From IMG/VR virus record IMGVR_UViG_3300045988_075868: a stretch of DNA of 43,788 nucleotides; one strand, given 5' to 3'. This DNA comes from a virus. Shown here one piece after another: positions 1-43,788 of this stretch. Every line of letters starts with the position of its first letter. The stretch's first letter is position 1. The position numbers were made by a program, and so were the translations under genes. A model generated the notes under the pieces. It was given only the letters and a program-made list of their open reading frames with translations. It ran no database searches and was not told where the DNA came from.

Positions 1-99
1 ATAAACAAAAAAGTGGATAAATAGTATTGACAAGCGAAACGAAATAGTGTATTATAGTATCAGAAAGGAGGTGAAACACCAGTGAGCAAACAAAAAAAG
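1..99 (+). repeat. 99-bp terminal direct repeat, identical to 43690..43788
   Basis: Base-by-base comparison of both ends shows 99/99 identity ending exactly at the window borders. This is typical of a k-mer overlap in a circular assembly. Confidence 0.95.
27..55 (+). promoter_or_regulatory. Sigma-A-type promoter (TTGACA-17-TATTAT, TG immediately upstream)
   Basis: TTGACA at 27-32, a 17-nt spacer, and TATTAT at 50-55. It is followed by AAAGGAGGTG and a GTG start at 82. A duplicate copy lies at 43716-43744. Confidence 0.6.
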
Positions 100-198
100 G
101 GCGGCAAGGCCAAGCCCGACAGCTTAGTTAACCTTACCGCCGCAATCCTAAACCTCGTCACTGCCATTCTTCTCTTGATTGAGAAGCTGACAGAATAG
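82..198 (+). CDS. Small membrane peptide (38 aa, MSKQKKGGKAKPDSLVNLTAAILNLVTAILLLIEKLTE)
   Basis: GTG start sits 9 nt after AAAGGAGGTG. The peptide has a Lys-rich N-terminus and one hydrophobic helix. A GGGGGAGG/CCTCCCCC hairpin follows the stop. It is too short for the ORF track. Confidence 0.5.
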   Translation: MSKQKKGGKAKPDSLVNLTAAILNLVTAILLLIEKLTE

Positions 199-1913: not shown

Positions 1914-2177
1914 TTATTCCTTCAACTGCTTGATGGCCTGGTTGACACCAGTTGCCGCCAGACCGCTTACAATGCCCACGGCAACGGCGGTCACGGGATC
2001 GCTGGCCGGGAAATCCGGCACGCCCAGGGCCAGACAGGTCACCCCCAGCAGTCCGCCCACCAGCCCGCATACCACGGGAATGAGGGCGTTGTTGTCGTAT
2101 GGGGTCGCCTTGACGATCAGGCCCACCAGGTAGCAGATGACGGTGACCGCCGCCACGCTCGCAATACCAAAGTCCAT
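1914..2177 (-). CDS. Holin (three hydrophobic segments, Hol44-like C-terminus)
   Basis: Sequence MDFGIASVAAVTVICYLVGLIV...GLVGGLLGVTCLALG...AVGIVSGLAATGVNQAIKQLKE. Start moved to ATG 2177, preceded by GAGGGGGTGAAAAT. It lies next to the XhlA-like gene and near the amidase. Confidence 0.75.
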   Translation of the reverse strand: MDFGIASVAAVTVICYLVGLIVKATPYDNNALIPVVCGLVGGLLGVTCLALGVPDFPASDPVTAVAVGIVSGLAATGVNQAIKQLKE

Positions 2178-2191
2178 ATTTTCACCCCCTC

Positions 2192-2554
2192 TCAAAGACC
2201 TATCTTGTCTAACAGAAAGGCCATAACCGCTGTAATAACCGCCGCAATTATGGCCCAACTCATTTTGCCTTTCAGGTCTTTCCAGTTGCGCCCTGGCTCC
2301 GCCTGAATGTCCGACAATCCCTTGGACAATGTGCTCACCTTACCCGTCAGGGCCTCCAACTTTTCAAGTATCGTTGTATACTGCTGGCCCTGCTCCGCAC
2401 GGGCGATCTCTAGCTCCCGGATTCTGTTGAAAAACTCTTTGTGCGTCTGTCGGGACTGCTCCTTCCATTCGCTCATCTGCTTTTCCAGCATATTAGCTTT
2501 CTGGAGGCCAAGGCAATCCCGCTGTGGGTCTAAGATACATTTTTCATCTGCCAT
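2192..2554 (-). CDS. XhlA-like lysis-associated protein (coiled coil with C-terminal TM anchor)
   Basis: Long helical region (EFFNRIRELEIARAEQGQQYTTILEKLEALTGKV) and C-terminal WAIIAAVITAVMAFLL. The position directly upstream of the holin matches the PBSX xhlA-xhlB-xlyA order. Confidence 0.5.
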   Translation of the reverse strand: MADEKCILDPQRDCLGLQKANMLEKQMSEWKEQSRQTHKEFFNRIRELEIARAEQGQQYTTILEKLEALTGKVSTLSKGLSDIQAEPGRNWKDLKGKMSWAIIAAVITAVMAFLLDKIGL

Positions 2555-21480: not shown

Positions 21481-22101
21481 CCCGCAACGAGGCACGGCAT
21501 ATATACCCCTTCTGGGGTATGTTGCGGGTTTGGTCAGGCTTTCCGGAGGCCTGCTCTGTAAGGACTTGCGTCCTGGTGCCACCGCCCGCCTCATACGGCG
21601 AGGAGCGGCATATGTGCGCTTCCCGCTTAATTGTCACACCCTTATGTGCGGCTGGTCATTCCGTCCTGGTACACATAAGGCAGTTTTCAGCGGGATAGCG
21701 CCGGGGCAGGTCATAGCTGCCGCCGCTTCCGCCTCCATGACAGGCGGGTGCCCTTTACCCTTCTCCGGTGCATAATTAGGCACTGTAAGCCCCCGGTATA
21801 GTGTCTTTCCACAGTCATAGGAACCTGCAAGATTTGAACTTGCGACCTCTACCCCTTTCGGTTAAGTGACGGATTCCGCCCCGTCCCAGGTTCCGCATGC
21901 CCCCGTCTTTCCGGGGTGTCAGCTCCTTGGCCTTTGGAGCAAGCTTCATTTAGTGCCCGCAAGGGGCAATGTTTCGCCGCATGGAGGGTGCGACCCTCCG
22001 GCCCGGATGTGCGGCGTATGTACCCCGGCAAGCGCCGGGGTTGAGGAGGAAATAGAAGAAGCGAATGGGAGCGCAGGGGCATACGCTCCCACACTCCCAT
22101 T
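21481..22101 (-). ncRNA. Candidate large structured non-coding RNA (possibly ROOL/GOLLD-like) or a highly structured late-operon leader
   Basis: No credible CDS across 733 bp. Many GC-rich nested helices are present (coordinates in the findings). An embedded tRNA-like element fixes the strand. Boundaries are approximate. Confidence 0.5.
21819..21894 (-). ncRNA. tRNA-like cloverleaf with an aberrant anticodon arm (probably non-decoding)
   Basis: Minus-strand features: acceptor GGAACCT/AGGTTCC (7 bp), D arm GACG-GGGCGGAATC-CGTC, T arm GCAAG-TTCAAAT-CTTGC. The anticodon region forms only an imperfect helix or a CC-GAAA-GG hairpin, has no U33, has an 8-nt variable region, and has no encoded CCA. 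Confidence 0.55.
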
Positions 22102-34714: not shown

Positions 34715-34945
34715 TCAAAACTCTGTTTGTTCTAGCAGGATGGGACGAGCTGGAACAATGGTAGAAATGGCGTGCTTGTAGATGATCTGCTGTTTTCCAT
34801 CACTGTCCAGGACTACGGTGAAGGCATCGAAGGCAGAAACGGTTCCCTGCATCTGGTAGCCATTCATCAAAAACACGGTGACGGGTTGCCGCTCCCGGCG
34901 GAGCTTGGTCAGCAAAATTTCCTGCAAGTTGTTTTTCTCTCTCAT
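34715..34945 (-). CDS. hfq: RNA chaperone Hfq
   Basis: Sm1 motif [25 protein letters not shown] and Sm2 motif [12 protein letters not shown]. Start moved to ATG 34945 (76 aa). The upstream part of the track ORF is implausible. Confidence 0.9.
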
Positions 34946-35127
34946 AGCAATCGTCCTTTCAAAGATGGATGTAAAAATCGAATAGCTTCCCGACGGTTTC
35001 GGCCTCCTCCGCCCGCCGTTCTGCAAGCTGTCGGGGCTTATTCCCTGGCAGGCCTCACTCCCGCCCTCACGGGCGGTTTTCTTATGCTCCTTGGTCGTCG
35101 GTGATGCGCTGGTCGGGGTGCTTTTTA

Positions 35128-35156
35128 TTGCCCCTCCCGCTGGAATATGGTAGTAT
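35128..35156 (+). promoter_or_regulatory. Promoter (TTGCCC-17-TAGTAT with TGg extension)
   Basis: Located upstream of the 35183 gene. It is preceded by the plus-strand hairpin CCGCCC-TCAC-GGGCGG-TTTT at about 35058-35082. Confidence 0.45.
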
Positions 35157-35182
35157 GTGGTCGAAAGGGGATGATCCATTTG

Positions 35183-35792: not shown

Positions 35793-35826
35793 TATATTGT
35801 ATAGAACAAATTTTCTATACAATATA
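35793..35826. promoter_or_regulatory. Perfect 14-bp inverted repeat (TATATTGTATAGAA-N6-TTCTATACAATATA)
   Basis: Abuts the -35 element of the following promoter. Candidate operator or bidirectional AT-rich hairpin. Confidence 0.5.
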
Positions 35827-36598: not shown

Positions 36599-37453
36599 AT
36601 GGAGACAGGCAGAACAATATCCTTGCGGGAACGAATCCGAATAAATCTTGTCACTGCAATGGAAAATGCCGGAATAAATCAAGTACAACTTGCTGACAAA
36701 TTAAACATAAGTAAAGGCACAGTCAATAATTGGACCCGTGGGAATAACTCTCCGGATGTCGATATGGTTCCAAGGATTTGTGAAGTCTTGGGAATATCTG
36801 TTTTATCTCTTTATTCACCAACAGAATTTGAAAGCCCGGAGGGGGAAACAACAAAAAAATCCCCCTCCGAACTATCGGAGGAGGCACAAAAAATCGCAAA
36901 GAGCTATGAAAAGCTGACCGACCATGGAAAAGGGGCTGTCAAGCTTATTATGGAATATGAGGGGAAGGCCGAGATCACAGCAACACCAAAGCAGCCTGTC
37001 GGCCACCCTAAAGTCATTCCCCTGCCGAAAGTAAAACGTAGCCACGGCTTTACAGAGGTTGAAGTGTTTGACGAGCCCGCCGCCGCCGGCCTTGGGAATC
37101 CGATAGAAACTCCTCCCAGTCATATGGAGCAGTATCCGTCCGACTATGTTCCCACAAAAACGAATTTTGGTGTGCTGATCTCCGGAGATTCTATGGAGCC
37201 GAAGATACCAAATGGCTCTACAGTCTTTCTCCAGGCCACTCCCGTTCTTGACAATGGTGAAATAGGTATCTTTGTTCTGGACGGGAAGTCGTACTGCAAG
37301 CAGTTGAAGAAGGACGAAGAAAGCCAGGAGGTAAAACTGCACTCCCTCAACCCGGAGTATAAGGATATTGAGATACCACCGTTTACCGAATTAAAAGTGC
37401 TGGGCCGTGTGCTGGGTGGCTACGACCCTCACACGAGGGATATCATCTGGTAA
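36599..37453 (+). CDS. CI/LexA-like repressor (XRE HTH with S24 peptidase domain)
   Basis: N-terminal INQVQLADKLNISKGTVNNWTRGNN. C-terminal GDSMEP and FVLDGKSYCKQL, giving the Ser/Lys dyad context. Confidence 0.85.
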   Translation: METGRTISLRERIRINLVTAMENAGINQVQLADKLNISKGTVNNWTRGNNSPDVDMVPRICEVLGISVLSLYSPTEFESPEGETTKKSPSELSEEAQKIAKSYEKLTDHGKGAVKLIMEYEGKAEITATPKQPVGHPKVIPLPKVKRSHGFTEVEVFDEPAAAGLGNPIETPPSHMEQYPSDYVPTKTNFGVLISGDSMEPKIPNGSTVFLQATPVLDNGEIGIFVLDGKSYCKQLKKDEESQEVKLHSLNPEYKDIEIPPFTELKVLGRVLGGYDPHTRDIIW

Positions 37454-37502: not shown

Positions 37503-37895
37503 GTGCCGGAAAATTTCAATAAGCTATTTTGCGTCGGAGAGTATGTTACAGAGTTCAATTTAGCAACCGGACAGCATCTTCCTTGTGGGCCAATTTACCA
37601 ATCTTATGGTCTAATGGCACATATTCAGAAAAGACACCCCTCCGAGGTTTCAAATCTATCTTATGTGCCGGAGATCATATCTTCTCCTGATTATATTGGA
37701 AAGCACCCTAAAGAGCCGGATAGTATTGAACTAGTGAAAATTTTGAGCGGCAACATAATGGTCTGTATAAAATTGGATAGGGATGAAAATTACCTGTTTG
37801 TTGCAAGTGTTTTCGAGATTAGTGAAGGAAAATTGAAAAACCGCATTAACAGTGGGAGATTAAAAAAGTTGACAAATCACAAAATGTGTGATTAA
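37503..37895 (+). CDS. PBECR-like (Barnase-EndoU-ColicinE5/D-RelE-like) putative nuclease
   Basis: AHIQKRHPSEV...YVPEIISSPDYIGKHPKEPDSIELVK...VASVFEIS fits my recollection of the PBECR pattern. GTG start after GAGGGGGAAAG. Low GC. Confidence 0.45.
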   Translation: MPENFNKLFCVGEYVTEFNLATGQHLPCGPIYQSYGLMAHIQKRHPSEVSNLSYVPEIISSPDYIGKHPKEPDSIELVKILSGNIMVCIKLDRDENYLFVASVFEISEGKLKNRINSGRLKKLTNHKMCD

Positions 37896-38071
37896 ATGAA
37901 GTTGCAAAAGCATAGACTGTATTGGGTGTTGAGGTCGGAAATGGCTCCCGACACTCCCTTGTATGAGGATAGAACGGGCATCTATCACCTATATGGGTAA
38001 TGCGTGAGTGCCGACACGCCGCAAGGGAACCTGAGATGTAGGATACGCCGCCCTACCAACATCCAAAACAC

Positions 38072-38216: not shown

Positions 38217-39443
38217 TCAAACCTGTTCTGTATCGCTTCTTGCGATATAGTCGTCTAATTCATTTAGATTGATTGAATAGTAATTTGTCTTTCCACGCCT
38301 CGATTTTACAAGTAGATTTTGTGGTATTTGCTCTAACTTGCGTGTCAATGTTGTGCGACTAAGCATTGCATGTTTCAGCACTACATCAGTTGATACACCA
38401 AATTCAGAGAAAAGCGCCGCTTGGATCAGAAGGCTATAGATTTCTCCCAGTTTTTCATCCTTCCCAGCGCACAGATCCTCTATTCTCTGCAAATACCTGT
38501 TTAATCGGACAAGCCCTTCCTGCAAGCTTTCCTTCAGCTTTTCCACTGATGTTTTTATTATATTTAAGAACATCGTTAGAAACGGCGTCAAATCCCCGAG
38601 GTTTACTTGGTCGTTGCATACAGTAAACGCTTTGTAGTAGTCATTGATATTTTCCTTTATTGTATATGAAAGCCGATAGCCTGTCACCGGAACTAACTCC
38701 TGCGAGAGAAGATAGCTACATATAAAGCGGCCAAGTCTTCCGTTCCCATCATAAAACGGATGGATATACTCAATCAAATAGTGAAAAATTGCAATCCTGC
38801 AAAGCGCTTCATGAGATTCGTCATGTAAAAATATAAGCGCCTTTTCCATGGATTGAATTATACTTTCTTCCGGGTATACCCCCTTATGAATCTCCTTCTG
38901 GCTCGGACTATAAATGCTCACCGACTCTTTGCGAAACCACTTCCCGTCTGGTAGGTTATCTGGATTCTCTTCTTCCACTTCTGCAAGCACCAGCTCATCG
39001 TAGATCGCCCTAATGTCCTGGCAGCTTTCAATGGGGATTTCTTCTTTTGTCATCAGCATGTCATACTTCTGAACTAATCCGAAAAAACGCTTCCCTTTGC
39101 TTTTTTCCTGCAACTCATCCAGAATATCGCTAATTTCCTTTCTGGTGCTCCGAACACCTTCTATGCTGTTAGTCAACACAATCTCATCTATGAGACATCT
39201 CCTAGAAAACTGACTAATAGCCGCACCAGGCAGTATGGAGCAGAGATTTGAAACAGCAGTGTTCATGCGCAAAATATCTGTAATCATATGGTTGATCTCC
39301 GGCGTTTGAATGAAAAATGCATTGTTTCCATTAACTTGGAAATCTAAATGTATCGCATATTCACTTTGATACCGTTTTTCATATAACGCTTTATACGCTT
39401 CCTTGTCTTTGTAATACAGCTCTGATAAATTTTGATATCCCAT
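38217..39443 (-). CDS. Fic-domain protein (AMPylase family, class II inhibitory motif) with a C-terminal winged-helix-like region
   Basis: Fic motif HPFYDGNGRLGR and N-terminal inhibitory-type motif TNSIEG. GGAGGTG lies 6 nt before the ATG. Low GC. Confidence 0.85.
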   Translation of the reverse strand: MGYQNLSELYYKDKEAYKALYEKRYQSEYAIHLDFQVNGNNAFFIQTPEINHMITDILRMNTAVSNLCSILPGAAISQFSRRCLIDEIVLTNSIEGVRSTRKEISDILDELQEKSKGKRFFGLVQKYDMLMTKEEIPIESCQDIRAIYDELVLAEVEEENPDNLPDGKWFRKESVSIYSPSQKEIHKGVYPEESIIQSMEKALIFLHDESHEALCRIAIFHYLIEYIHPFYDGNGRLGRFICSYLLSQELVPVTGYRLSYTIKENINDYYKAFTVCNDQVNLGDLTPFLTMFLNIIKTSVEKLKESLQEGLVRLNRYLQRIEDLCAGKDEKLGEIYSLLIQAALFSEFGVSTDVVLKHAMLSRTTLTRKLEQIPQNLLVKSRRGKTNYYSINLNELDDYIARSDTEQV

Positions 39444-40881: not shown

Positions 40882-41034
40882 TTTTAATCGCCCCCCTATC
40901 AATCTGTGTGATATTTCGTGTTGCATGATTGTTCGGCGTGTGATATTTACTTGCCTTTTTTCTCGTTAGAGTGTAAAATATGGAAAAAAGCAAGGGAGGG
41001 AGCAATCACCAAATCCCTTGTGCCGCAACGTTTT

Positions 41035-41107
41035 CAGGAAAAATGAAGAAACCAGGCCTTTTCAGACCTGGTTCTTCTTGGTGCGCGAGGCGGGAGTCGA
41101 ACCCGCC
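41035..41107 (-). other. attP core region: 3' end of a tRNA gene (T arm, acceptor 3' strand and CCA) with its own terminator
   Basis: Minus strand 41107->41079 reads GGCGGGTTCGACTCCCGCCTCGCGCACCA (T stem GCGGG/CCCGC, loop TTCGACT, acceptor CTCGCGC, discriminator A, CCA). It is followed by hairpin GAAGAACCAGG...CCTGGTTTCTTC and ATTTTT. No matching 5' half (GCGCGAG) lies upstream, so this is a fragment. Confidence 0.7.
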
Positions 41108-41152
41108 AACAAAAGCACAAAGTAATTGTGGCACAATGGTTTTCGGTTTTTG

Positions 41153-41161
41153 TGGTATAAT
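41153..41161 (+). promoter_or_regulatory. Extended -10 promoter element (TGgTATAAT) upstream of the Spo0A_C gene
   Basis: TGGTATAAT at 41153-41161. The -35 element is weak. Confidence 0.4.
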
Positions 41162-41276
41162 TGTGTTGCATCTTGTGTGATATAGCAAAAAAATCGAGAG
41201 GCCCGCTAAGACAATGCCGCGGACCTCCCCAGAGGCATGGCGTATCCCGCATAAAGATAGAAAGGATTGAAACGTC

Positions 41277-41651
41277 ATGCCTATAACCATGGACCCTATA
41301 CAGGAATGTAGCGATTTGCACATTGTTGTAGAGCGAACTCTACGCCGCCTCCGAATCAGCGGAAAGTTGAAAGGTTTTCGCTTCTTGAGGTATGCCCTTA
41401 CAGTAACCGTAAAAGACCCTTACCGGACTGATCTTATCACGAAAGTTCTTTACCCCGAAATAGCCGCAGAATTTAGTGATAAAGATACCAGGGTCGAGCG
41501 GGCAATCCGTACTGCGATTTGCGCCTGCTGGGACAGCTACGGCAGAGATGAACTGAATAAGATGGCGGGCTATACCTTAGAAAAGCGCCCCACAAACTTA
41601 GAGTTTATTGACTTGGTAGCAGCATATATTCGTTACATCCTGGACAGGTAA
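41277..41651 (+). CDS. Stand-alone Spo0A C-terminal (DNA-binding effector) domain protein, no receiver domain
   Basis: ITKVLYPEIAAEF..TRVERAIRTAICACWDSYG...KRPTNLEFIDLVAAYIR aligns with B. subtilis Spo0A ITKVLYPDIAKKF..SRVERAIRHAIEVAWSRGN...KPTNSEFIAMVADKLR. Confidence 0.85.
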   Translation: MPITMDPIQECSDLHIVVERTLRRLRISGKLKGFRFLRYALTVTVKDPYRTDLITKVLYPEIAAEFSDKDTRVERAIRTAICACWDSYGRDELNKMAGYTLEKRPTNLEFIDLVAAYIRYILDR

Positions 41652-41940: not shown

Positions 41941-42060
41941 CCTTCACTCCTCCAAAACACACATAATTCATAATATTTAGTCATCTTTGGCATAATAATA
42001 GCATAAAAAGTGTGTTAGTGTCAATCCCGAAATAGTCACTTTTGGGATAGGATTGATAGT

Positions 42061-42318
42061 ATGCGATTGTTAACATGGAATGGAAAGTGCAACTGTTGTG
42101 GTGAAAGGGTCCGCCTTGCTCGGGAAAAGGCGGGATTATCACAAGAGAAACTGGCCGCTATAATCCAGCTTAATGGGCATGGTCTTACACAGAAGGCAAT
42201 CAGCCGAATTGAAACAGGGGAGCGCATCGTTCCCGATTTTGAGATTCCGCTTCTCGCAACTGCGTTGAATGTAGATCCACTATGGTTGTTAGGTATAACA
42301 GAATGTAATAGAGAGTAG
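42061..42318 (+). CDS. XRE-family HTH regulator
   Basis: GERVRLAREKAGLSQEKLAAII...TQKAISRIETGER. A hairpin follows at about 42322-42350. The start and promoter are unclear. Confidence 0.65.
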   Translation: MRLLTWNGKCNCCGERVRLAREKAGLSQEKLAAIIQLNGHGLTQKAISRIETGERIVPDFEIPLLATALNVDPLWLLGITECNRE

Positions 42319-42429
42319 AGAAAGGCCAGGGATCACGCCTTGGCCTCATTGGTAAATATCGATCATAATTGAAGGAAACGGGGCTGTCAGGGCTCCTTCA
42401 AAAATTTTATATAGAACATTCGTTTGTTA

Positions 42430-42458
42430 TTGTCAATCCTCACATTCGCTGATATAAT
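42430..42458 (+). promoter_or_regulatory. Promoter (TTGTCA-17-TATAAT) for the Panacea operon
   Basis: Canonical spacing, followed by GAAAGGAGGG and ATG 42485. Confidence 0.6.
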
Positions 42459-42484
42459 ATATTATAGAAAGGAGGGTCTAGAGC

Positions 42485-42955
42485 ATGCCAATGTCAGCGA
42501 CCGTTGTTTGCAACAATATTTTGAAGCGCGCATTTTCAGAAAGTGTTGCTGTTTCTCCCATGAAATTACAGAAATTACTGTATTTTGTAAGCTGTGAATA
42601 TGTCAAGGCTACTGGTAACGATCTTTTTTCGGAAGATTTTGGCGTGTGGCAGTATGGCCCCGTTCTCCCTACCGTATATGATGAGTTTAAATCCTTTAAG
42701 AGCACTCCCATCAATAAATATTCTACAGATGCAAACGGTATAGCGTATGCCATTGATGAAGATAGTGCTCCAAATCTAAAAACTGCTATTGTTCGAATTT
42801 GGAACAGTTTCAAGTTTTTTGACGGAGTGACATTATCAAAAATTACACACAAAGATGGCTCTGGCTGGTCAAACGCATTTTGCCAACATCGCTCCAAAAT
42901 TACAACTGAGGATATGAGGTCGGATAATACATATGGGGAATATCTGCTCACCTAA
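42485..42955 (+). CDS. Panacea-domain (DUF4065, SocA/GepA-like) antitoxin-type protein
   Basis: SPMKLQKLLYFVSCEYVKATGNDLFSEDFGVWQYGPVLPTVYDEFK matches the DUF4065 core (LQKLLYy...g.pLf.e.feAW.yGPV.p.vY). Confidence 0.75.
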   Translation: MPMSATVVCNNILKRAFSESVAVSPMKLQKLLYFVSCEYVKATGNDLFSEDFGVWQYGPVLPTVYDEFKSFKSTPINKYSTDANGIAYAIDEDSAPNLKTAIVRIWNSFKFFDGVTLSKITHKDGSGWSNAFCQHRSKITTEDMRSDNTYGEYLLT

Positions 42956-43271
42956 TACAAATAAAAAGCCAGAAATTATCTCAGAAATTGATGCGCCTTT
43001 TCCTCCGGTCAATCAACCTCTGCAAACATCTGAAGATGTTCCGAACTTAATTAAACTCAAAAATCAACAACACAGTCATGCAGTCGAAGACCTGAAAAAT
43101 ACCGTTGGGAAAAAATTGCTATATGGGTGTCTAATTGCAATCGCGGTCTTTGCTCTTATTGACGCAAAGTTCCATGTTGATTCCCCGATGTTTACCAGTG
43201 CATTTGAAGTCGCAAAAATTGTTGCAACTACTGTTCTCGGATATCTATTTGGTAGTAAAACAAAATCTTGA
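42933..43271 (+). CDS. Small protein with two TM helices; candidate toxin partner of the Panacea protein
   Basis: Overlaps the upstream gene by 23 nt. Hydrophilic N-terminal 60 aa, then LLYGCLIAIAVFALI and AKIVATTVLGYLFG. No family recognised. Confidence 0.55.
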   Translation: MGNICSPNTNKKPEIISEIDAPFPPVNQPLQTSEDVPNLIKLKNQQHSHAVEDLKNTVGKKLLYGCLIAIAVFALIDAKFHVDSPMFTSAFEVAKIVATTVLGYLFGSKTKS

Positions 43272-43278
43272 CATAGAT

Positions 43279-43316
43279 AACTCCCACCACCCGTCCCGGT
43301 AGTGGGAGTTGTTTTT
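43279..43316. terminator. Intrinsic terminator (AACTCCCAC...GTGGGAGTT followed by GTTTTT)
   Basis: 9-bp outer stem with an inner CCG/CGG pairing and a T5 tract on the plus strand. Confidence 0.7.
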
Positions 43317-43339: not shown

Positions 43340-43368
43340 CGGTTCATCCCCACGCATGTGGGGTTTAC
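43340..43368 (-). CRISPR. Solitary type I-E-like CRISPR repeat unit (no array)
   Basis: The minus strand reads GTAAACCCCACATGCGTGGGGATGAACCG. It has 29 nt in a 5+6+4+6+8 layout, identical to that of the E. coli I-E repeat GAGTTCCCCGCGCCAGCGGGGATAAACCG. The 3' handle is ATGAACCG versus ATAAACCG. Only one copy is present. Confidence 0.6.
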
Positions 43369-43689: not shown

Positions 43690-43788
43690 ATAAACAAAAA
43701 AGTGGATAAATAGTATTGACAAGCGAAACGAAATAGTGTATTATAGTATCAGAAAGGAGGTGAAACACCAGTGAGCAAACAAAAAAAG
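43690..43788 (+). repeat. 99-bp terminal direct repeat, identical to 1..99
   Basis: See 1..99. It contains the duplicate promoter and the first 6 codons of the 82..198 gene. Confidence 0.95.

Follow-up and report, generated by a model that had tools for sequence, protein, structure and literature searches.

A Panacea gene and an overlapping small membrane protein gene as a candidate PanAT toxin-antitoxin operon of a temperate gut-clostridial phage

In this study, we ask what is encoded by a compact two-gene cassette in the viral record IMGVR_UViG_3300045988_075868, a stretch of 43,788 nucleotides (nt) that we call the window. A first-pass annotation, made from the letters alone, had described an antitoxin-like gene of the Panacea (DUF4065) kind overlapping a gene for a small membrane protein, and had proposed a toxin-antitoxin or abortive-infection pair. 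We favour, with moderate confidence, the reading that the two genes, here panA and panT, are a PanAT-type (type II) toxin-antitoxin operon whose toxin is a small membrane protein, and that a temperate phage of gut clostridia carries this operon as a moron. The parts of the cassette are as follows.

42430..42458, + strand: sigma-A type promoter, -35 TTGTCA, 17-nt spacer, TG-extended -10 TATAAT (11/12 matches)
42470..42475, + strand: Shine-Dalgarno (SD) sequence AGGAGG of panA, 9 nt 5' of the ATG, read from the sequence and conserved in the cassette alignment
42485..42955, + strand: panA, 156 amino acids (aa), ATG start
42933..43271, + strand: panT candidate, 112 aa, ATG start
43279..43316, + strand: intrinsic terminator, an interrupted hairpin at 43279..43310 (17 pairs, 6-nt loop) followed by the U-run GUUGUUUUUGU

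In line with the earlier description, the two open reading frames (ORFs) lie at these coordinates and share a 23-nt overlap, and the cassette has a promoter and a terminator of its own and a low guanine-plus-cytosine (GC) content (39.1%, against 49.2% for the genome). The -35 TTG, the TGnTATAAT, the SD sequence and the ATG are kept across 7 divergent cassettes with otherwise non-alignable flanks. The terminator hairpin has a folding energy of -29.6 kcal/mol (z=-7.6; 0/200 shuffles equally stable), and each related cassette carries its own, different hairpin 3' of the stop codon. Homology to other cassettes at the DNA level (blastn) starts at 42428 for locus L001 and at 42400 for locus L003, that is at the -35 or about 30 nt upstream of it, and stops at the stop codon. 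The single SD candidate of panT is a GAGG 13 nt upstream; this distant GAGG, together with a start codon placed inside panA, suggests from sequence that translation of panT is coupled to that of panA.

The Panacea identity of the upstream protein is borne out by Pfam, where PanA matches SocA_Panacea (PF13274, DUF4065) well over threshold (E=3.2e-17; 63.9 bits, cut-off 25.7) across profile positions 1-112 of 113. PanA further matches phrog_1281 (E=2e-34) and the NCBIfam family SocA_antitoxin (NF047745; E=5e-24), the latter with 84.9 bits and thus under the equivalog cut-off of 190. It is a standalone Panacea domain, without an extra N-terminal domain. W55, Y57, G58, P59, V60, H122 and W128 are invariant in 11 PanA proteins, among them the validated E. 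coli PanA; Y57 is situated in a WQYGPV motif and H122 in an ITH motif. The Panacea fold comprises helices alpha1-alpha7 and strands beta1-beta2 (Ernits et al. 2023, PMC10440598). No solved structure matching PanA by sequence was found, and its single-sequence AlphaFold model, with helices and two short strands, is too unreliable for use (predicted local distance difference test score, pLDDT, 47.7). Both panA and panT are under purifying selection, with a ratio of nonsynonymous to synonymous substitution rates (dN/dS) of 0.11-0.15 where dS was computable (it is saturated elsewhere), and both ORFs are therefore real genes.

The downstream protein, which had been assigned to no known toxin family, indeed lies outside every curated one searched: PanT gave no match in Pfam, PHROGs, NCBIfam or PADLOC. 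Its N-terminus is hydrophilic, as described earlier, with residues 1-36 predicted to be disordered, and contains a conserved KPEI..E.D.PFP motif; a helix with the motif QxHxHxVExxKN stands directly before the first transmembrane (TM) helix, and these are the two best-conserved cytoplasmic motifs of the protein. Two TM helices had been read from the sequence. This stands for TM1 (residues 62-80), which is strongly hydrophobic (Kyte-Doolittle hydropathy, KD, 2.06-2.79) and followed by a short loop, and is qualified for helix 2 (about 86-107), which is amphipathic and only moderately hydrophobic (KD 1.26-1.58) and carries E92 and K95. Helix 2 bears the motif AFExxKxxATTVLGYLFG, with a basic tail after it. 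The hairpin has conserved polar or charged residues at D77, E92 and K95, of which K95 is invariant across the wider family. AlphaFold, run with a 49-sequence alignment, predicts a helical hairpin of residues 37-80 and 85-111, with pLDDT 73-87 over residues 51-110.

To whom, then, does such a protein belong? A single-sequence search returned 23 homologues of 59-99% identity, 0 of them annotated. Profile searches extended the family to 82 clusters at E<=1e-3 among 1.84 billion representatives and to 340 proteins in a set of 5.8 billion. These relatives come from Oscillospiraceae, Lachnospiraceae, Bifidobacterium and Streptococcus pyogenes prophages, with Blautia obeum, B. producta, B. pseudococcoides, Bifidobacterium sp. 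SO4, B. samirii, Lachnospiraceae and Flavonifractor plautii as named sources. Among 185,579 species-representative genomes, the close family was found in one Oscillospiraceae metagenome-assembled genome only.

The first-pass annotation had staked its pairing on the gene neighbourhoods of these homologues, and here the outcome is uniform: a Panacea ORF lies directly upstream of panT, on the same strand, in 16/16 distinct cassette types examined, the window included. The types are the window with L008, L001, L003, L004, L005 (Chenonceau), L007 (Montmirail), L009/10, L011, L012-14 (Blautia obeum), L015 (Bifidobacterium), L016, L017 (Javan470), L029/30, L031/32, L033/34 and L035/36, and they span 22-99% toxin identity. 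In L016 and L033 the panA gene had been missed by the gene caller, and the hallmark motifs are present in the ORF translation. At the junction, the two genes are separated by 7 nt at most and overlap by 59 nt at most. Pairwise identities of PanA and PanT rise together (Pearson r=0.89; 11 cassettes, 55 pairs). Flanking genes vary by locus and include CHAP or Amidase_2 lysins, terminase, integrases, Abi_2 and an MNT-type nucleotidyltransferase, so that only the panA-panT pair is conserved. Given the bounds of homology, the separate terminators, the correlated identities and the dN/dS values, panA-panT is a mobile, co-evolving two-gene unit.

Several of these pairs are found in named phages. In Flavonifractor phage Chenonceau (ON453904), WAK79834 and WAK79833 are 69% (PanA) and 41% (PanT) identical to the proteins of the window and stand beside hemolysin, holin and endolysin genes. 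Blautia phage Montmirail encodes, as WAK79246/WAK79247, a pair with a distant PanT homologue (hhalign probability 94%), which unlike that of the window is located upstream of the terminase, away from the lysis genes. Both are isolated, inducible phages of OMM12 mouse-gut strains, and in both the two genes are annotated as hypothetical proteins. In S. pyogenes/dysgalactiae prophages, Javan470_0053/0054 (GepA and a 104-aa hypothetical protein) lie between the lysin and paratox; this PanA is 32% identical to that of the window, and its gene has a 17-nt overlap with the toxin gene. The 104-aa protein is a true distant PanT homologue (hhalign probability 97%, E=8.5e-11 over the hairpin), although its N-terminal region has diverged from that of the PanT of the window.

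How does the pair relate to PanAT systems already described? As defined by Kurata et al. 2022 (PMC8832971), Panacea antitoxins are partnered by 88 clusters of toxins, and the antitoxin gene usually comes first. The pairs tested in that work formed complexes, as in type II systems, and several PanA partners were small peptides with predicted TM helices (PMC8832971). The PanT toxins of E. coli (T3), Bartonella (T12) and Helicobacter depolarise the membrane, and small PanA-paired toxins with a charged N-terminus and C-terminal TM helices, such as these three, constitute a validated class (PMC8832971). For the Bartonella pair, a standalone Panacea is predicted to contact the unstructured N-terminus of the toxin and a short helix before its TM region, and neutralisation is lost when PanA carries Y56A or H120E (Ernits et al. 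2023, PMC10440598).

The E. coli STEC (Shiga toxin-producing E. coli) O31 pair (T3) and the Bartonella apis/choladocola pair (T12/D11) have the same gene order as the window, with a standalone Panacea first and the toxin adjacent or overlapping, and like our PanT the T3 and T12 toxins begin with a charged or unstructured region and end in two hydrophobic helices and a basic tail. The T3 pair of E. coli is prophage-borne (PhiR47_1), as that of the window is phage-borne. Y57 and H122 of PanA fall in the same motifs as Bartonella Y56 and H120, a likeness by motif, the Bartonella sequence standing outside our alignment. Differences from T3/T12 are the length of the toxin (112 aa, against 182 aa), the hosts (Gram-positive gut anaerobes), the conserved E/K pair in helix 2, and a LexA box at the promoter, which for T3/T12 is not reported in the portions of Kurata et al. 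2022 and Ernits et al. 2023 covered here. A further parallel is offered by Streptococcus phage P9, in which gp51/gp52 occupy the same position as the pair of the window: they come immediately behind the endolysin gene, at the end of a temperate phage of a Gram-positive host, and the PanA gene is first and overlaps the next gene. Its gp52 is nevertheless unrelated to our PanT; it has 269 aa, a long N-terminal region and 3-4 hydrophobic segments.

The idea that the pairing may be new was thus right in one respect and overstated in another. The toxin family looks undescribed: its taxa and accessions were not found among the listed entries of the Kurata et al. 2022 and NetFlax datasets that we covered. 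By contrast, a small membrane toxin with PanA is a published, validated class (PMC8832971, PMC10440598), and a PanAT pair just past the lysin of a Gram-positive prophage is already on record in P9. On sequence grounds, PanT is probably an undescribed toxin family within a known kind of system.

On the reading we favour, a single promoter would drive panA, and panT by translational coupling through the overlap, with the strong terminator closing the unit. PanT would be a small protein of the inner membrane, where its helical hairpin lies, with a cytoplasmic N-terminus and a basic tail at the C-terminus. Free PanT may insert, oligomerise and dissipate the membrane potential, like the PanT toxins of E. 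coli, Bartonella and Helicobacter. PanA would neutralise it by binding directly to the unstructured N-terminus and the helix before TM1, with the motifs KPEI..D.PFP and QxHxHxVExxKN as likely contact sites. We infer direct neutralisation of a depolarising hairpin toxin because the layout of PanT fits the published interface and because PanA has the Y57 and H122 motifs. Host LexA would repress panAT, and DNA damage would switch it on together with prophage induction. The biological role could be abortive infection or exclusion, stabilisation of the element, or a function linked to the SOS response.

The LexA step of this scheme draws on one site.

42414..42425, + strand: candidate LexA (Cheo/SOS) operator, GAACATTCGTTT; it stops 4 nt short of the -35

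Clostridial LexA operators take the forms GAACnnnnGTTT and GAACnnnnGTTC, the GTTT form being found at C. difficile lexA, recA and ruvC (Walter et al. 2014, PMC4234289). GAACATTCGTTT fits GAACnnnnGTTT, GAAC-N4-GTT(T/C), and, with both strands counted, is the only exact GAAC-N4-GTTY in the 43.8-kb genome. Exact boxes recur upstream of panA in L003 (1/500 shuffles) and, as AGAACAAATGTTCG, in the Blautia obeum locus L012, whose promoter is non-alignable with that of the window (0/500 shuffles); one-mismatch boxes are present in L001, L005, L011 and L035, and none was found in the high-GC Bifidobacterium-type loci. The argument draws its weight wholly from the clostridial form being exact and from the fact that it recurs at other cassettes, which suggests that panAT is under SOS control. 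SOS-regulated small membrane toxins are known from E. coli, where TisB/IstR-1, DinQ and HokE depolarise the membrane and have a LexA operator; these are chromosomal type I systems with RNA antitoxins. The pair of the window would resemble the TisB type in its small membrane toxin and its putative LexA operator, and differs by having a protein antitoxin, Panacea. The wider proposal, that PanT founds an undescribed and fairly widespread PanT family and that in clostridial phages the operon is wired into the SOS response through the LexA box, we consider possible and, on balance, rather doubtful.

Other repeats were noted in the regulatory regions of the genome. A 13-bp perfect inverted repeat, ATATTGTATAGAA-N6-TTCTATACAATAT, at 35794..35825 in the lysogeny-switch intergenic region, is centred on a GAAC-N4-TTTC core and is probably the main repressor or LexA operator. 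An 18-nt direct repeat, GT(G/T)TGTTA(G/T)TGTCAATCC, occurs at 42010..42027, upstream of a gene for an 85-aa helix-turn-helix (HTH) protein, and at 42422..42439 in the panA promoter, with an inverted partner, GGATTGATAGTA, at 42050..42061. It could be a shared operator of the 85-aa HTH protein or a coincidence of -35-like hexamers; we did not adopt a shared operator, which is unproven, as the repeat consists largely of -35-like TTGTCA/TTGACA hexamers in opposite orientations.

A number of points weigh against the proposed operon and its control. Toxicity of PanT is argued from likeness to validated PanT toxins, and in the published screen a predicted membrane PanT of C. difficile (T4) was non-toxic in E. 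coli, while the PanT of Streptococcus phage P9 showed toxicity in E. coli that was not neutralised (Kurata et al. 2022, PMC8832971). Compared by hhalign with 32 E. coli-type T3 toxins, the PanT family profile gave a weak match (probability 15.9%, E=0.0016) that does not establish homology, although it is in register at the Cys that is conserved in TM1, at the loop, and at the G-x-LF with basic tail; against a single E. coli T3 sequence the probability was 1-3%. Nor could PanT be linked to another known cluster: homology to T4 (P9 gp52) has an hhalign probability of 0.5%; T16 (bIL312 Orf25) is a soluble protein (probability 0.9%); and T1 is a predicted mRNase by its authors' annotation. This comparison took in representatives of T3, T4 and T16. 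Within PanT itself, the hydrophobicity of helix 2 is marginal and the AlphaFold model has a mean pLDDT of 65, a moderate confidence. PADLOC has no model for either PanA or PanT, and a defence role is for this reason conjecture. At the promoter, the LexA box is placed upstream of the -35 and not over it; GAAC-N4-GTTC sites show no enrichment in the window when one mismatch is allowed; and a half-site, TATAGAAC, is common to the 35794..35825 operator and the panA promoter, so that a phage repressor could be the real binder at panA.

The place of the cassette in its genome bears on the alternatives. The window has a 99-nt exact direct repeat at its termini (1..99 and 43690..43788), and a second viral contig, L008 (IMGVR_UViG_3300045988_043726, 42.7 kb), which is 99.7% identical over the compared stretch, crosses from 43788 to position 1. 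From the terminal repeat and this continuity, we take the window to be a complete, circularly permuted temperate-phage genome and not a prophage fragment. As part of the favoured reading, its host would be a gut clostridial member of the Oscillospiraceae; the closest isolate is Chenonceau. The genes referred to below are these.

36599..37453, lysogeny/accessory region: CI-like HTH and S24 peptidase repressor
37503..37895, lysogeny/accessory region: PBECR3 (Barnase/EndoU/RelE-like) nuclease gene
38217..39443, - strand, lysogeny/accessory region: Fic protein, 408 aa
39682..40881, lysogeny/accessory region: integrase
41277..41651, + strand: Spo0A_C-only protein, 124 aa (E=2e-29)
42061..42318, upstream of panAT: HTH protein, 85 aa
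486..1286, - strand, lysis cassette: endolysin
1914..2258, - strand, lysis cassette: Phage_holin_5_2 holin
2192..2554, - strand, lysis cassette: XhlA-like gene

The panAT cassette has the integrase side on one flank and the lysis genes on the other. On the circle it is followed by a solitary CRISPR repeat, a 72-aa HTH gene (- strand), a gene for a 38-aa membrane peptide and the lysis cassette (- strand), whose genes are about 1 kb beyond the cassette and convergent with panAT. The first-pass annotation had placed the cassette in an accessory island at the lysis-proximal end of a prophage; the position is right once the window is read as a circle.

Could PanT instead be a harmless protein of the prophage? 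On this account it would be a non-toxic membrane protein, for example one for superinfection exclusion or receptor masking, with PanA as its regulator or sensor and not its antitoxin. We regard this as unlikely, even though a cassette at the moron position, with promoter and terminator of its own, would suit it, as would the non-toxicity of some predicted membrane PanTs when tested (Kurata screen, PMC8832971) and the proposal that Panacea acts mainly as a sensor (Ernits et al. 2023, PMC10440598). A pairing this strict, co-evolving and coupled in translation, with a partner that binds in the cytoplasm, is what toxin neutralisation typically shows; the conserved D77, E92 and K95 in the hairpin point to a pore or oligomer and not a passive anchor; and integrated elements other than phages have the pair too, next to Abi_2 and MNT-type genes.

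The neighbourhood of the lysis genes raises another possibility, that of an accessory lysis-timing module in which PanT acts like a holin, antiholin or pinholin, is checked by PanA and is freed at induction. Class II holins have an N-in/C-in, two-helix topology, which the likely topology of PanT resembles; the pair adjoins the lysis cassette in the window, L001, L003, L004, Chenonceau and Javan470, and the candidate SOS box would activate it at induction. Set against this are the lack of a holin-family match in Pfam or PHROGs for PanT or 58 family members, the lack of any Foldseek hit at E<1 among viral structures, and the presence in the phage of a Phage_holin_5_2 holin and an XhlA-like protein. 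In addition, the cassette is transcribed separately from the lysis genes and converges with them, and the pair is found before the terminase in L007 and L035/36 and beside an integrase, with no lysis genes nearby, in L015, L029-L034 and L012-14. We consider a lysis-timing role quite improbable. Least probable, in our estimate, is a SocAB-like (type VI) arrangement, with PanA as a proteolytic adaptor handing the toxin to ClpXP in place of a stoichiometric inhibitor. The Panacea domain was first characterised in SocA, and PanA does match the SocA_antitoxin family; that match is under the equivalog cut-off, however, the partner is a small membrane protein and not SocB, and tested PanAT pairs gave stable type II complexes (PMC8832971).

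A PanAT-type operon at this locus would give a name and a testable function to small "hypothetical" membrane proteins that turn up repeatedly in abundant gut commensals (Blautia obeum, Flavonifractor, Bifidobacterium), on their temperate phages and integrated elements, and in S. pyogenes prophages, and would extend the list of Panacea partners. The conceptual gain is modest, since neutralisation of small membrane toxins by PanA is already established. If the LexA link holds, the operon would represent a type II membrane toxin-antitoxin system tied to prophage induction in anaerobes. Were it indeed wired into the SOS response, it would be a protein-antitoxin analogue of the TisB-type SOS toxins that fires with prophage induction, and not a constitutive addiction or abortive-infection module; as such, it could exclude competitors, tune lysis or push non-inducing lysogens into dormancy. 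As the pair is present in the inducible OMM12 phages Chenonceau and Montmirail, these ideas are testable in a tractable gnotobiotic system.

Beside the cassette, the window contains a solitary type I-E CRISPR repeat, GTAAACCCCACATGCGTGGGGATGAACCG (43340..43368, - strand). It shares its strand with the 72-aa HTH gene, lies 33 nt 3' of it, and immediately precedes a bidirectional hairpin. The same 24-mer forms true arrays elsewhere (L022, 30 copies with a 61-62 nt period) and occurs singly in other viral contigs (L021/L028, L023, L025 and L026). The solitary repeat looks like a Racr-type RNA anti-CRISPR (PMC10651486). Among the panAT cassettes examined, the repeat was found in no other than that of the near-identical contig L008. 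A CreTA/crlRNA arrangement, in which the repeat would guide Cas to the panA promoter, was considered and rejected: the best phage match of the 33 nt after the repeat is 22/33, against a null maximum of 23, and the repeat is absent from those other cassettes.

Further along the circle, a 38-aa ORF (MSKQKKGGKAKPDSLVNLTAAILNLVTAILLLIEKLTE; 43771..43788 then 82..198, + strand), divergent from the 72-aa HTH gene, has a strong TTGACA-17-TATTAT promoter and an AGGAGG SD sequence upstream. With a basic N-terminus and one hydrophobic helix, its predicted product resembles a small membrane peptide or a type I toxin.

On the other side of the integrase, a skipping-rope RNA motif (RF02924) was identified at 37924..38064 (+ strand; 65.6 bits, gathering score 36.7), directly 3' of the PBECR3 nuclease gene and upstream of the convergent Fic gene, and this stretch may represent a second toxin-like module of the accessory region. 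The gene for a protein with the Spo0A C-terminal DNA-binding domain only also has a counterpart near panAT in L003 (2539..2898), and the phage protein may interfere with host sporulation control. Just 3' of the integrase gene, about 40990..41190, the window is 71% similar, in inverted orientation, to L003 2976..3172, near the integrase end of that locus. Translated ORFs of this stretch look like a tRNA T-arm, and ARAGORN calls no tRNA there; it may be an attP core or the remnant of a tRNA fragment. Elsewhere, the phage genome carries a tRNA-Arg(CCG) gene (21819..21894, - strand) and, at the edge of the early region, encodes a 154-aa protein (34715..35179, - strand) in which a C-terminal Hfq domain (E=3e-30) is preceded by about 80 aa of N-terminal extension.

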